41,475 bases of DNA, taken from positions 1 to 41,475 of IMG/VR virus record IMGVR_UViG_3300001682_000073; one strand, 5' to 3'. This stretch comes from a virus. Below the pieces are notes generated by a model, which was given only the letters and a program-made list of their open reading frames with translations, had not been told where the DNA came from and did no database searches. A program made the position numbers and the translations under genes. Below, piece after piece: positions 12,698 to 37,332 of the stretch (position 1 is its first letter; each line of letters starts with the position of its first letter).

Positions 12698-13366
12698 CTA
12701 CCTTCCTTTCACGCTGATAATGGTTTCTTGATAAAACTCCACGCCTGACACTTGGGCTTTTCCGCTGGATACCTTCGCCAGCTTGTCCAGTGCCGATTGG
12801 TCAACGGGTCTGATAACTATTCCGGCAATCTCGATAGGTACTTTAGATTCGTCAATGATTCGTGCTTTCCAAACCTTCCTGCCAGATACGCCATCAGACT
12901 TTGCTTTTTGGATCGTGGCGACAGGGGCAGAGGACTCAACAAGTTCAGCTTGTGCTTTCAACAGTTCTGCACCAAACAAATCCCCTGCCGCCTCTTTCTC
13001 TTGTGCTTCTCTCAAAAGCCGTTCGGCTTCTTCTCTTTGGCGGCGTTCCAGTTCTTCTCGTGCGGCACGTTCCTTAGCTTCAACTTCTCTTTGGTACTCT
13101 GCCATCTTGGCCTTTACGATTGATTCAGCTTCGCCCAGAGGCTCAAGAATGGTCTTTTCTCTTGCGCATATATCCTTCCATGCTTTGTAAGCGTTATCTT
13201 TAAGTGGTTTCCAGAATTCCTGCACCCGCTTGACGTAGGTTTTAAGATCACGGAGCCAATTCCCGGCTGCTTCGTAGGCTTCATTATCAGTTATCTGCAA
13301 AGCATTGGCTTGCTGAATAGCAAGGTTAGATTCTTGCTGTTGTTGGACTTCTTGGAGTTCGTTCAT
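12698..13366 (-). CDS. Coiled-coil hypothetical protein (E/R/A-rich centre)
   Basis: Long ORF with an AGGAG RBS. No family assigned. Confidence 0.5.
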   Translation of the reverse strand: MNELQEVQQQQESNLAIQQANALQITDNEAYEAAGNWLRDLKTYVKRVQEFWKPLKDNAYKAWKDICAREKTILEPLGEAESIVKAKMAEYQREVEAKERAAREELERRQREEAERLLREAQEKEAAGDLFGAELLKAQAELVESSAPVATIQKAKSDGVSGRKVWKARIIDESKVPIEIAGIVIRPVDQSALDKLAKVSSGKAQVSGVEFYQETIISVKGR

Positions 13367-14305: not shown

Positions 14306-14923
14306 TTACGTGTTCTTCACCACCCCATGCAAAAATGCACAGGTCTCAAAAATCTTGAATCCGTCTTTTATGTCTACCTTGATAAAGTCGTAAGAAGCGT
14401 CATGTCTGAGATGTAAAATGTAGTGATTTTTTACTTGGATCCCGTGAGACTTCAAAGCTTCGGAATACCCGTACAACTGCGCCGCTACTAAAGGCTCTAA
14501 AATCGTTTCTGAGGTCTTAAAATCAACAAGTGATAAATTACCTTCCTCAAGAAATAAACGGTCTAATTTGCCCGCGTAGAGCCTTGTACGGTGGTATATC
14601 GGGTACTCGTTTGCAACGGTCTGGAAGTTGTGGTCTTGCACCCATTTTTCATAAGCGAGTATGTACGGCAGGGTGTCTGGTTCGCACTCCTTCCACCCGT
14701 AGTTGTCGTAGGCTTCGATTGCTTCGTGTACCCTGGTTCCTTTGTCGGCGGCCTGATCTAAGACCGACTGAGGCACATCGCCGTAAATCTCACGGCTGAG
14801 GAATCTCAAAATTTGTGTCACAGATGGAAGCTCAAAGGTAATACCGTTCTGGTCAAGTGTATATAGGTGCTTGTCCTCGTCAAAGTGGAGTTCTGAAAAT
14901 TGAGGTAATGATATTTCCATCAC
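14306..14923 (-). CDS. PD-(D/E)XK (RecB/Cas4-like) exonuclease
   Basis: GTRVHEAIE ... GKLDRL ... LVDFKTS ... QLYGY, which is the order of the nuclease motifs. Confidence 0.65.
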   Translation of the reverse strand: MMEISLPQFSELHFDEDKHLYTLDQNGITFELPSVTQILRFLSREIYGDVPQSVLDQAADKGTRVHEAIEAYDNYGWKECEPDTLPYILAYEKWVQDHNFQTVANEYPIYHRTRLYAGKLDRLFLEEGNLSLVDFKTSETILEPLVAAQLYGYSEALKSHGIQVKNHYILHLRHDASYDFIKVDIKDGFKIFETCAFLHGVVKNT

Positions 14924-33366: not shown

Positions 33367-33972
33367 TTATGAGGTTAATTCCTTCCACTTCAAATAGTGG
33401 GCTTCTGTTACGACTTCCGTATTGCAATGTCCGCATATCAGCGTTGTATCGCAATAGATTTTGAAGCCTTGTTCTCTCGCTCGTATGCAAAACGCTAAAT
33501 CTTCTCCGATTTTCGGTTCAGGGAAGAACCAGGGTTGCAGTACATTTTCAAAGACTTTCCGCTTTATGAGCGTACAAGCCATACCAACACCCTGAATCTC
33601 AACCAAACCCTTGGGGTAATCGAAATAGAACTCGGTTCCGTCACGATCGCATTTTTTGAATATGCACGGTTCATAGGGTGGGAAACGCTTAAAAGCAAGC
33701 CCTGAAACAATATCTTTGTCGTGTTCAAGCAATCTAACAAGTAAATCCATCGGGACCACCATGTCAGAGTCGATGAACAATAAAGCGTCATAATCGCCTT
33801 GCAACATTGTTTTTACTGCATTTTCCCTCGCCGTGTAGATAAGGCTCATTCCAATAGGGAGCATATCAATCTCTATACCTTTTGAACGTGCATAACAAGC
33901 CATAGCAGGTAAAGAATATGCCGCTTGCGGTGGTATGTAGCCTGTATATGGAATGCACATTAGAACCTTCAT
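33367..33972 (-). CDS. GT-A fold (family-2-like) glycosyltransferase
   Basis: MCIPYTGYIP..., the DxD motif in LLFIDSDMVVP, and the later EDLAFC motif. ~200-aa single domain. Confidence 0.55.
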   Translation of the reverse strand: MKVLMCIPYTGYIPPQAAYSLPAMACYARSKGIEIDMLPIGMSLIYTARENAVKTMLQGDYDALLFIDSDMVVPMDLLVRLLEHDKDIVSGLAFKRFPPYEPCIFKKCDRDGTEFYFDYPKGLVEIQGVGMACTLIKRKVFENVLQPWFFPEPKIGEDLAFCIRAREQGFKIYCDTTLICGHCNTEVVTEAHYLKWKELTS

Positions 33973-33979
33973 AAATCTT

Positions 33980-34021
33980 GCCGCTGGATACCCCTGAATT
34001 TATTCAGGGGAGGAAAGCGGC
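33980..34021. repeat. 42-nt compound hairpin at the left edge of the tnpB element (candidate left-end structure)
   Basis: GCCGCT-ggata-CCCCTGAAT-tt-ATTCAGGGG-aggaa-AGCGGC. Confidence 0.5.
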
Positions 34022-34037
34022 TTATCCCCCTTTTCTA

Positions 34038-34066
34038 TTGACTTATTTGCTCAATAGTAGTATAAT
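34038..34066 (+). promoter_or_regulatory. Near-consensus sigma70 promoter of tnpB (TTGACT, 17-nt spacer, TATAAT)
   Basis: Spacing counted exactly. It lies 25 nt upstream of the ATG at 34091, with AGGCAGGTG as RBS. Confidence 0.7.
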
Positions 34067-34090
34067 TAATCTTGAAAGGCAGGTGATATA

Positions 34091-35173
34091 ATGCTTTGCA
34101 CTCTCAAGATTAAACTTATAACAAGTAACGAACAATTTAATGCTTTGCTTGAAACTATGAAGGTATTTAATCAAGCATGTAACTATGCCAGTGAAATAGC
34201 TTTTAATTCTAAAACTTTTTCACAGGTTAAACTACATAAAATTGTTTATTATGATATTCGTGAGAAATTCGGATTATCTGCTCAAATGGCTGTTAGAGTT
34301 ATTGGCAAAGTTGTTGAAAGTTACCGTGTCGACAAGAAAACTCTGCATACCTTTAAAGAAACTGGAGCTATTGTTTATGATGAACGCATATTATCCTTTA
34401 AAGGCTTGGAATATGCTTCAATCCTTACTTTACAGGGCAGAATTGAAGTACCGATGATTATCAGCAAATATCATCAAGGCTTGCTCGCTGGCAGGCGTGT
34501 CCGTGGGCAGGCGGACTTAATCCTGCAAAACGGCACATTTTATCTCCTCCTCGTTGTTGATGTTCCCGAAAGCGAACCTAATTCTAAAAACGGCTTCATC
34601 GGCGTTGATTTTGGTATTGTAAATATTGCAGTTGATAGCACTGGCGAAGTATTCTCTGGCGATAAGGTTAACGGCCTTCGGAAGCGTTATGCTAAACTTC
34701 GTACTAAACTACAAAGTAAAGGCACTAAATCAGCTAAACGTTTATTAAAAAAACGTTCCAAGAAAGAAAAGCTATTTGCTCGTGATGTCAACCACTGTAT
34801 ATCTAAGAAGATTGTTGCAAAGGCTAAGGCACTCGGTTGCGGAATTACCCTTGAAGATTTAAAAGGCATCCGTAAACGCACCGAGAAAACGGTTAGAAAG
34901 TCTCAGCGTAGGCAACATTCTTCTTGGGCTTTTTGCCAGCTTAGGCAATTTATCGAATACAAAGCTAAAATTGCTGGTGTACCTGTTGTATTGGTTAACC
35001 CCAAGAATACTTCTCGCACCTGTCCAGTTTGTGGGTATATTGCTAAAGGAAATAGGCCATCAAGAGATAAATTCTGTTGTCAGGTTTGCGGTTACGCTGC
35101 GCCAGCCGACAACGTGGCTGCGGAGAATATCCGCAGGGCTGCTGTCAACCAGCCAGACGCGGCAACCGCTTAG
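34091..35173 (+). CDS. tnpB: TnpB (IS605 OrfB-family RNA-guided RuvC nuclease), 360 aa, catalytic motifs intact
   Basis: RuvC-I GVDFGIVNIAV, RuvC-II ITLEDLKGI, zinc ribbon CPVCGY...CCQVCGY, and RuvC-III APADNVAAENI. Confidence 0.85.
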   Translation: MLCTLKIKLITSNEQFNALLETMKVFNQACNYASEIAFNSKTFSQVKLHKIVYYDIREKFGLSAQMAVRVIGKVVESYRVDKKTLHTFKETGAIVYDERILSFKGLEYASILTLQGRIEVPMIISKYHQGLLAGRRVRGQADLILQNGTFYLLLVVDVPESEPNSKNGFIGVDFGIVNIAVDSTGEVFSGDKVNGLRKRYAKLRTKLQSKGTKSAKRLLKKRSKKEKLFARDVNHCISKKIVAKAKALGCGITLEDLKGIRKRTEKTVRKSQRRQHSSWAFCQLRQFIEYKAKIAGVPVVLVNPKNTSRTCPVCGYIAKGNRPSRDKFCCQVCGYAAPADNVAAENIRRAAVNQPDAATA

Positions 35174-35214
35174 GTTAGCTGCAAGCCTCCGACTTCAGTC
35201 GGGGGTAGTTGACA
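35040..35214 (+). ncRNA. Candidate omega-RNA (reRNA) scaffold overlapping the tnpB 3' end, ending in the right-end hairpin (35186..35205); the 5' limit is a guess
   Basis: By analogy with characterised TnpB loci. An 8-bp hairpin CCTCCGAC-ttca-GTCGGGGG starts 13 nt after the stop. No covariation analysis was possible. Confidence 0.35.
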
Positions 35215-35397
35215 TCAAACCTTCTTCCTGTCTGTTTTGTACTTGGTTGCGTTAGTCAGGTCGTAACCGCCAAACTCTGAGCATTTAGGGTTAATGCAAA
35301 CAAGTTTCAATTCCCTATAAACGTCTGTACTGCCAACATCGCTGACGAATTTACTGCCAGCTATTTTCAAGTCACTCCCGCAAACATCGCATTTCAT
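35215..35397 (-). CDS. 60-aa zinc-ribbon protein downstream of the portal gene
   Basis: MKCDVCGSDL...CINPKC. GGAGGTGG RBS before the ATG at 35397. Confidence 0.55.
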   Translation of the reverse strand: MKCDVCGSDLKIAGSKFVSDVGSTDVYRELKLVCINPKCSEFGGYDLTNATKYKTDRKKV

Positions 35398-35398
35398 T

Positions 35399-37276
35399 CT
35401 AAACCACCTCCTGAACATTATCCGCATACGGTCTTGCCTGATTCTGCGGTAATGGTGTCTGTGCGACTATCTGCCTTACCTGTTGCTCAAATGCGGCAGG
35501 GTCGTTCCTTGCAAACATTCTCAGGTTGTTTACGGTATCCTTTGGCAGATACGGCATAAGAGCGTTCAGCTTTTCGCTCATAAGCTGTTGCATCAACTGT
35601 TGTTCCTGCGCCCTCTGCTGTGCCTCTGCTCCCTCCCTGGCTTCGATTAATGCCTCTTTATCGGGTATCACGCCGTCAGGCAGGCGTTTCAGGTACTCGA
35701 CAAAGTTAATCAATTGCATTTGCAGCAGTTTATCAAGGCTTTGGATAGCTGCGGCTTCGTTCCAAATATTCGCCGGTCCGACTTCGATTTTCAGCTTAAA
35801 TTTGATGTCTTTCAAAACCGATGTATCAATCGGTACGAACTGCTGCTCCTTGCCGTTGTTTATCTGCATAATCCTTGTCGGGTAATCGGTGTACTTTGAC
35901 ATGAAGAAGTCAAGCCAGATCAAGCCAACATCCTCAACGTACTGATAGAACCTTCTCTTGATAGCGGCAAGCGGGACAACGGCGTTTTTGCTGTTTACTA
36001 TAATTGCCGATGTGTTGGTCGGGTTAGCTTCTCCAAGTGCTGATTCGTTTGCTCCCGCCATGTCCTTAGTGGTTTGGATGAACCATTGCATAAACTGCAT
36101 TACAACAGACGGAATCTGTGCAGGTTGCATATAGGCGGCCGCACCACCGACACCACCTGTATCTGTGCCATTGACAGGAATTGCCGTAGTAACATCGTTT
36201 GTCCACTGATTTATGCGGGTCTTGTCGTATAGCACCTTCGGATAGCCGTGAATCGTTATCCACAGGGCAAGAATGGCGGCTTGCTTGTTAATCATTATCT
36301 GATTCGGAATAAGTGAAGTCGCTTCTGCTTCGCCGTATGCCGAACCTTCGCGCTCGTACCAGTTCATAATGGCTACAGGATAACGGTGCAAACCAGTATC
36401 CCATTTCGGACGAACAACCACGCTTTGAGTACATTTCTCGGCAAAGATTTTCCACTCCTGCCCCTTATTGACTTTGATGGTCTGAATAACGGTTTCGCCA
36501 GTTACAGGATCAATAACTTCCTGCTGTTCTTCCTCGATAACGTCAACAAGTTCCTTCCACATATGAAGAAGGACGGTGCATTTTCCACTGTCCTCAATTT
36601 CGGACTTTGCCATGTCGCCGGTTTCGTTCTTCGTTTCATCGTCAGCCGCAATCAATTCAAGCTGTTCCTTCGTTGCTCCGTTCTTCTTGGCTTCACGGCG
36701 AACGTCCTCCACCTGCTGACGGAAGGACAATATTATGTACGGCTGAACAGGCTCATAAGCGTTATTGATCTCCGGCATGTTCGGGTCTCCGGGGAAGAAA
36801 TTGCTTGCGTTTATCAGTTCACCACAAATATCGCCCTGTTGACCGTCGCCAGCGTCTATTTTGTCATACCAATACCAGTACGACACCATAGCCCCGCTTA
36901 AAGCCGCCTTATTCAAACCCTTTTCGTTCATGGAATCCATTTTCAGCTTTTCCCACAGGGTCGCTGTGTGTTCTGTGAACAATCTGGCAATTTCTCGGTA
37001 CATCTGGCTTTGCGGATTGTTGTCGGTATCGCTTATCCAGTCTGCCGTGAACTTCATTTTGAGAAGGTCGGACATGACTTGGGAGCATTTCCAGTCAACA
37101 ATTCGCTTTGTGACATTGAGGATCGGCGTTGGGTGCTTGTTGGTCTTTATCCCACGCCAATGGTCGCCGGAGTAAAACCGCTCATTCTTGTCTGTCTTGG
37201 ACAGTAATGATATTTTGCTTTGGTATTCAAGACCTTTCTGATACCTTTGCCATGCTTTGGTCTGTTCTATATCCAT
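35399..37276 (-). CDS. Portal protein (625 aa)
   Basis: Assigned by size and position downstream of terL. GAGGTGA RBS before the ATG at 37276. Confidence 0.7.
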   Translation of the reverse strand: MDIEQTKAWQRYQKGLEYQSKISLLSKTDKNERFYSGDHWRGIKTNKHPTPILNVTKRIVDWKCSQVMSDLLKMKFTADWISDTDNNPQSQMYREIARLFTEHTATLWEKLKMDSMNEKGLNKAALSGAMVSYWYWYDKIDAGDGQQGDICGELINASNFFPGDPNMPEINNAYEPVQPYIILSFRQQVEDVRREAKKNGATKEQLELIAADDETKNETGDMAKSEIEDSGKCTVLLHMWKELVDVIEEEQQEVIDPVTGETVIQTIKVNKGQEWKIFAEKCTQSVVVRPKWDTGLHRYPVAIMNWYEREGSAYGEAEATSLIPNQIMINKQAAILALWITIHGYPKVLYDKTRINQWTNDVTTAIPVNGTDTGGVGGAAAYMQPAQIPSVVMQFMQWFIQTTKDMAGANESALGEANPTNTSAIIVNSKNAVVPLAAIKRRFYQYVEDVGLIWLDFFMSKYTDYPTRIMQINNGKEQQFVPIDTSVLKDIKFKLKIEVGPANIWNEAAAIQSLDKLLQMQLINFVEYLKRLPDGVIPDKEALIEAREGAEAQQRAQEQQLMQQLMSEKLNALMPYLPKDTVNNLRMFARNDPAAFEQQVRQIVAQTPLPQNQARPYADNVQEVV

Positions 37277-37332
37277 ATGTTTCACCTCATTTCTGAGCAA
37301 TAAACTTGCATTCAGACACTCCTTTCAGGTGT

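Follow-up and report, generated by a model that had tools for sequence, protein, structure and literature searches.

A probable TnpB-only element of the IS200/IS605 family in a complete phage genome, with a predicted guide matching its own empty site

The ISGst-type IS200/IS605 elements of Geobacillus stearothermophilus combine a TAM, a left-end hairpin, a tnpB gene, an omega-RNA overlapping both the 3' end of that gene and the right end, and a guide taken from the flank (Meers 2023). In ISDra2 of Deinococcus radiodurans, TnpB acts with an reRNA of ~150 nt composed of the tnpB 3' end, the right end of the transposon and a guide of ~16 nt from the flank. The TAM, located 5' of the left end, is the site that the transposon itself targets, and homing via double-strand break repair has been proposed (Karvelis 2021). 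The guide is whatever adjoins the right end, and the element inserts 3' of the TAM (Karvelis 2021; Meers 2023). A homing mechanism acting on the donor joint ('restorative' homing) has already been published (Meers 2023; Karvelis 2021). Spread among plasmids independent of TnpA has been reported, and homing into co-infecting phages is listed as theoretical (2026 review). The homing endonuclease genes of phages (intron and intronless homing in T-even phages) also have a nuclease target only in the allele that lacks the nuclease gene, and are expected to spread in co-infection by recombinational repair (2026 review).

The window analysed here, a stretch of 41,475 bp, is a complete virus record with direct terminal repeats. 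We assign positions 33973..35213, with good confidence, to an insertion sequence of the IS200/IS605 family that is non-autonomous and TnpB-only (IS1341-type), is nearest to Geobacillus and Thermincola elements and carries a predicted guide for its own empty site. In its TAM, left-end hairpin, tnpB, overlapping omega-RNA and flank guide it resembles the ISGst-type elements. The TAM TTCAT is also that of ISGst5, for which it was established by experiment in G. stearothermophilus (Meers 2023 preprint), and the TnpB is 84% identical to a Geobacillus zalihae copy. A right end common to HEARO/IscB elements, described by Meers 2023, is a further likeness. Unlike the ISGst-type elements, the one described here lies in a complete phage genome without TnpA, and its potential target, recognised from sequence, would be the allele of a sister phage and not a sister chromatid. 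The RNA architecture and the position of the TAM are those of ISDra2, whereas the TAM differs (TTGAT in ISDra2), ISDra2 is autonomous (tnpA and tnpB), and its TnpB is distant, with similarity at the Pfam level only (408 aa in ISDra2, 360 aa in the window). In contrast to phage homing endonucleases, the element is a transposon found in bacterial chromosomes as well, and an RNA guide fixed automatically by the site of insertion, rather than a protein-DNA interface, would determine what is recognised. The mechanism has been textbook knowledge since 2021-2023, and we claim nothing new in kind.

Borders, coding content and distribution of the element

The element occupies 1,241 bp between the start codon of a glycosyltransferase gene and the stop codon of a zinc-ribbon gene, as defined by comparison of the window with empty-site relatives. 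Two IMG/VR contigs (L002 and L003), 96-99% identical to the window on both flanks, lack 1,241-1,242 bases that are present in the window, reading ...GAACCTTCAT-G-TCAAACCTTCTTCC... at that point, and are therefore empty sites; they set the boundary of the left end (33973..34090, + strand). Comparison of empty and occupied sites revealed a clean insertion after TTCAT with no target-site duplication, the pattern of the IS200/IS605 family. Also, empty-site contigs from runs X1, X3 and X15 join 33972 to 35214/35215, and left-side loose ends in contigs of four sequencing runs start at 33967-33969. The TAM (33968..33972, + strand) is immediately 5' of the left end and is the reverse complement of ATG-AA, with which the minus-strand glycosyltransferase gene begins. 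In three unrelated contexts, namely the window, L033 and another phage (L031, whose copy is 98% identical), the left end is directly preceded by TTCAT. For L020 and L022, which are more distant, inspection by eye did not place the TAM with confidence.

The right end reads ...GGGGGTAGTTGAC and finishes at 35213 with the terminal bases GTTGAC. This border is set by an identical 28-nt end, CCTCCGACTTCAGTCGGGGGTAGTTGAC, that is present in the window and in four further viral contigs and is followed straight after GTTGAC by five unrelated flanks, and by several different loose ends that begin right after 35213 in contigs of the four runs. The left end contains a nested subterminal hairpin, GCCGCT..ACCCCTGAAT-tt-ATTCAGGGG-AGGAA-AGCGGC, the arms of which covary, as judged by eye, in L020, L021, L022, L033 and L036. 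Subterminal hairpins of the CCCC..GGGG type are present at both ends, the right-end one being counted in the alignment of 58 relatives described below.

The single gene of the element, tnpB (34091..35173, + strand), encodes 360 aa with a zinc ribbon. The protein matches the Pfam families OrfB_IS605 (PF01385, 39.5 bits; cut-off 30.5) and Cas12f1-like_TNB (PF07282, 71.5 bits; cut-off 26.3), as well as solved TnpB and Cas12f structures in the PDB (E down to 1.5e-20). In an alignment of five sequences, with relatives 39-71% identical, D173 (GVDFG), E255 (LEDL) and D340 (ADNVAAEN) are invariant and, by motif position, are candidates for the RuvC catalytic triad; the zinc-ribbon cysteines C311, C314, C330 and C333 are invariant in the same alignment. 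The most similar TnpB proteins come from a Thermincola MAG (94% identity), a Clostridia MAG (84%) and Geobacillus zalihae (84%). Inside the left end, a predicted tnpB promoter, TTGACT-17-TATAAT (34038..34066, + strand), agrees with the consensus at 11 of 12 positions, and no terminator-like site was detected 3' of the right end (window 35214-35400, + strand). Transcription from this strong predicted promoter would continue antisense into the zinc-ribbon and portal genes.

No match to a Y1 transposase (TnpA, PF01797) was found in the phage, and thus we consider the element non-autonomous. The genome of Geobacillus zalihae does contain Y1 transposase genes. In the same samples the element is far commoner than the phage flanks (depth 149 versus 5 in run X15), and several foreign flanks adjoin it in the contigs of the runs, indicating multiple copies and recent mobility within the community. 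On the + strand of the window TTCAT is present 126 times, versus 41 times on the - strand, a skew that probably follows from most genes being on the minus strand; it offers many more potential insertion and TAM sites antisense to phage genes. As a mobile element of the whole community, it happened to insert at one of the 126 + strand sites.

Two other complete viral records with terminal repeats, one of 59 kb (L033) and one of 83 kb (L022), carry TnpB relatives of 37% and 62% identity, respectively. We found no Y1 transposase in either, suggesting that solo TnpB elements recur in complete phage genomes. Searches of the GenBank phage collection in near and distant mode, with the locus and the element as queries, returned nothing. 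In two contigs of another phage from one metagenome (L035 6445-6666 and L031 2868-3113), the copy of the 98% identical element adjoins the stop of a small opposite-strand gene (...KKKEEGE*), with the stop codon two bases from the right end, so that the geometry is similar and the gene unrelated. We considered and rejected the idea that these contigs represent the same site in a diverged phage. Their right flank holds the final part of a different small gene, beside a tail-fibre-like gene, which rules this out, and the stretch ACCTTCTTC that they have in common with the window merely reflects a Lys/Glu-rich C-terminus.

A conserved RNA structure at the right end

The 3' domain of the putative omega-RNA scaffold (35120..35213, + strand) comprises four stems and a pseudoknot. 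Stem A pairs 35120-24 with 35130-34, stem B 35137-41 with 35150-54 and stem C 35159-67 with 35173-82, and the terminal hairpin D, CCTCCGAC-ttca-GTCGGGGG, pairs 35186-93 with 35198-205, all on the + strand. In the pseudoknot, GUCAAC in the loop of stem B (35144-49) pairs with GUUGAC (35208-13), the six nucleotides that close the right end.

We evaluated this structure, as read from the window sequence, by counting its pairs in an alignment of 58 related elements, for which we took the terminal 160 nt up to the right end of each. Across these relatives 91.6% of cells are paired, as against 25-43% in slid controls, and 26 of the 33 pairs change on both sides; none of 500 shuffles came up to these figures. 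For the pseudoknot, pairing is complete (100% of the cells), with compensatory changes such as GUCAUG/CAUGAC. Pairing falls from 91.6% when read on the + strand to 82.7% on the - strand, and there are 200 G.U cells against 30 A.C cells, an excess that assigns the structured RNA to the + strand, that of tnpB. In the window, the 99-nt region folds with a minimum free energy of -48.8 kcal/mol (z = -4.25 versus shuffles), and the minimum-energy fold gives the same stems A-D. Hairpin D is the one that the preliminary description had singled out, and both the covariation and the fold show it to be a genuine feature.

The covarying structure ends exactly at 35213 and overlaps the 3' end of tnpB. By sequence and predicted fold, it fits the published arrangement of TnpB omega-RNAs, in which the scaffold derives from the tnpB 3' end plus the right end and the guide from ~16 nt of the flank (Karvelis 2021). 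Contigs from RNA libraries that stop at 35213 were considered as possible transcript ends and rejected, since they are explained by repeat branching in the assembly.

The predicted guide, its target and the empty alleles

The predicted guide, ATCAAACCTTCTTCCTGTCT(G) (35214..35233, + strand), is phage DNA beyond the right end. With the border at 35213 it begins at A35214, not T35215, and reads ATCAAACCTTCTTCCTGTCTG; the length of 16-20 nt is taken from ISDra2 and not from the window. It is antisense to the stop codon and the last six codons (KTDRKKV*) of the zinc-ribbon gene (35215..35397, - strand; 60 aa, MKCDVCG...CINPKC...RKKV), the 3' end of which is the target sequence. The gene is kept at 55-100% identity in 17 related phage contigs (L002-L019), indicating that it is real, and lies directly downstream of the portal gene (35399..37300, - strand), which matches Pfam P22_portal. 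No second match to the guide with three or fewer mismatches was found in the phage.

The preliminary description had read the hairpin at 35186..35205 as followed by tagttgaca and then immediately by the stop codon at 35215..35217, and these sequence facts are all present: tagttgaca occupies 35206..35214, and the TCA at 35215..35217 corresponds, on the minus strand, to the TGA with which the zinc-ribbon gene stops. Its proposal that the scaffold ends at the right end and that the guide is flanking phage DNA antisense to this gene agrees with our results. The geometry that it gave for the border between element and guide is correct and the position is off by one, as the five unrelated flanks end the element at 35213 and not 35214.

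It had further supposed that the guide sequence would stand next to a TAM only in phages lacking the insertion, and such alleles do occur in nature. The empty site TTCAT + R + TCAAACCTTCTTCCTGTCTG is present in eight assembled contigs of phages 95-99% identical to the window; these come from seven records, some probably of the same assembly, and six have G and two have A. The G form, TTCAT-G-TCAAACC..., is found in L002, L003 (= L116), L117, L118, L120 and contigs of runs X1 and X3. In this form (L002 type, TTCAT-GTCAAACC...) guide position 1, next to the TAM, is mismatched, which may reduce cleavage. The A form, TTCAT-ATCAAACCTTCTTCCTGTCTGT, is found in L119 (TTCAT-ATCAAACC...) and in a 523-nt contig of run X15, and provides a perfect target of 22 nt, so that a reconstructed empty site, which had been suggested as a check, has both TAM and target. 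Several flanking positions differ between the X15 contig and the window, so that this contig represents a separate strain rather than an excision product of the window phage. The more distant relatives L004-L013 are all empty, with TTCAT in some and TTCAA in others.

We found no second occupied allele in IMG/VR or JGI contigs, where a search with the junction pattern TTSAYRTCAAACC... gave only empty sites, and no contig bridging the phage and the left end in the four runs examined. With the occupied allele confined to the window record, nothing points to a homing sweep. Run X16 has a 1,263-nt RNA-library contig that aligns to window 34032-35225; it contains the right end and ~12 nt resembling the window flank (ATCAAACCTTCT) and then becomes unrelated. 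This contig may come from a mosaic relative with a second occupied allele, or the alignment may be over-extended.

The insertion also changes the upstream context of the glycosyltransferase-like gene (33367..33972, - strand; PHROG 1574 and 12406), whose start codon abuts the left end. Around this start the empty allele reads AGGAAGAAGGTTTGACATG and the occupied allele GGCAAGATTTATG. In empty alleles (L002 5462-5504), AGGAAGAAGG lies 6-8 nt before the ATG, within the last codons of the zinc-ribbon gene, and the same stretch is also the target of the guide. In the window (33960-34012), the left-end sequence GGCAAGATTT precedes the ATG, and we see no comparable Shine-Dalgarno motif there. The sequence therefore suggests that the insertion separates the gene from its Shine-Dalgarno, at a probable cost.

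Homing, passive carriage and other readings of the locus

We propose that a host-encoded Y1 transposase may have placed the element 3' of TTCAT, where a 1-nt spacer separates two phage late genes. The left-end promoter would then transcribe tnpB, and the 3' part of the transcript would fold into the omega-RNA scaffold, with the pseudoknot using the last six bases of the element. If the transcript extends ~16-20 nt into phage DNA, this extension would serve as the guide, and the TnpB-omega-RNA complex would recognise TTCAT followed by ATCAAACCTTCTTCC.... Such a target would exist only where the element is absent: at a donor joint left by excision, or in a sister phage that shares the cell and lacks the insertion. 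Were this empty site cut and then repaired from a copy bearing the element, the element would be restored or copied in.

The arrangement was called 'homing-type' in the preliminary description, and as an arrangement this is correct. It reflects no special adaptation, because an IS605-family element inserts 3' of its TAM and takes its guide from the next flank, so that every IS200/IS605 insertion targets its own empty site. The recombination module invoked there is borne out in part. The ORF at 14306..14923 is a PD-(D/E)XK exonuclease (PHROG 298, E = 4e-30; Pfam PDDEXK_1 just below cut-off) and the ORF at 12698..13366 matches another exonuclease family; no strand-annealing recombinase was recognised near the exonuclease by Pfam or PHROGs among the ORFs tested. 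Thus, the first reading is right in geometry and over-read in significance.

What this geometry means for the phage can be read in several ways. The element may be a passive, mildly harmful hitch-hiker that came from the host chromosome in one infection, its guide irrelevant to the phage and its lineage transient, and we give this reading somewhat less than an even chance. It is consistent with an occupied allele unique to the window record, with a glycosyltransferase gene uncoupled from its ribosome-binding site and antisense transcription added into the late operon, and with near-identical element ends in many other contexts, and the 126 + strand TTCAT sites mean that the insertion site needs no special explanation. 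However, the element is fully intact in promoter, catalytic residues and RNA structure, and its carrier was assembled as a complete genome with terminal repeats, and so was abundant enough in the sample to assemble.

Another reading, which we regard as possible though rather unlikely, is a gene drive from phage to phage ('non-restorative homing'), in which TnpB would cut co-infecting empty sisters and recombination would copy the element in without TnpA. This extends our preferred explanation, an IS200/IS605-family element whose guide targets its empty site, rather than excluding it. The natural empty alleles with a perfect TAM and target (L119 and the X15 contig) argue for it, as does the occurrence of insertion-free phage forms in all the metagenomic runs examined, from anaerobic digesters, biogas, wastewater and activated sludge. 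In a phage without TnpA, homing would be the sole route of spread; the phage has a PD-(D/E)XK exonuclease, and spread without TnpA is on record for plasmids, with phage targets theoretical (2026 review). Against it, one occupied allele stands beside eight assembled empty-allele contigs from seven records, most empty alleles mismatch guide position 1 (six of the eight contigs have G), and a single occupied genome allows no comparison of co-conversion tracts. Active spread is further disfavoured by the suggested cost to the glycosyltransferase gene, and by an element much commoner than the phage and present in several other contexts. That the element is a working RNA-guided gene drive of phages, with the G variant at position 1 a drive-resistant allele maintained by conflict, appears to us improbable.

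If TnpB cut co-infecting relatives at the empty site chiefly to exclude them, with little copy-in, the element would be a weapon against competitors. The targeting geometry would be identical to that of homing, and interference between co-infecting phages by intron endonucleases provides a precedent (2026 review). However, flanks 95-99% identical would make recombinational repair from the carrier easy, favouring copy-in over killing; we consider this reading quite improbable.

The remaining alternative concerns the RNA itself. Rfam contained no match to a TnpB omega-RNA, and its sole hit in the window was a weak one to HEARO (RF02033) on the minus strand (35048..35213; 28.7 bits against a gathering score of 83, E = 1.3e-3). 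With a score below the gathering threshold and no IscB gene in the phage, we do not assign the element to HEARO/IscB. Two tandem full-length HEARO RNAs, scoring 129.5 and 109.6 bits in the viral contig L032, start from the reverse complement of exactly the 28-nt end of this TnpB element (L032 3455-3891, minus strand; L034 2515-2722), and tblastn found no TnpB relative in these loci. That the structured RNA is instead a minus-strand HEARO-type (IscB) omega-RNA, starting at 35213 and guided by the sense strand of the zinc-ribbon gene, is very improbable even with this match and the true HEARO RNAs of L032 in its favour, given the low score, the lack of IscB in the phage, the strand preference of the G.U pairs and a likeness accounted for by shared origin. 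Specifically, IscB omega-RNAs derive from the transposon right end and take a 5' guide from outside it (Meers 2023), and the hit in the window arises because IscB omega-RNAs share this transposon end and read it in the reverse orientation. A single transposon right end thus serves, in one pool of viral metagenomes, as a guide-RNA scaffold both in sense, for TnpB, and in antisense, for IscB/HEARO.

The locus provides a natural test case for transposase-independent, RNA-guided homing of TnpB between co-infecting phages, a process that is theoretical in the literature. Its alleles are defined to the base: the occupied form, the A form of the empty site, which matches the guide, and the G form, which is empty with one mismatch adjacent to the TAM.
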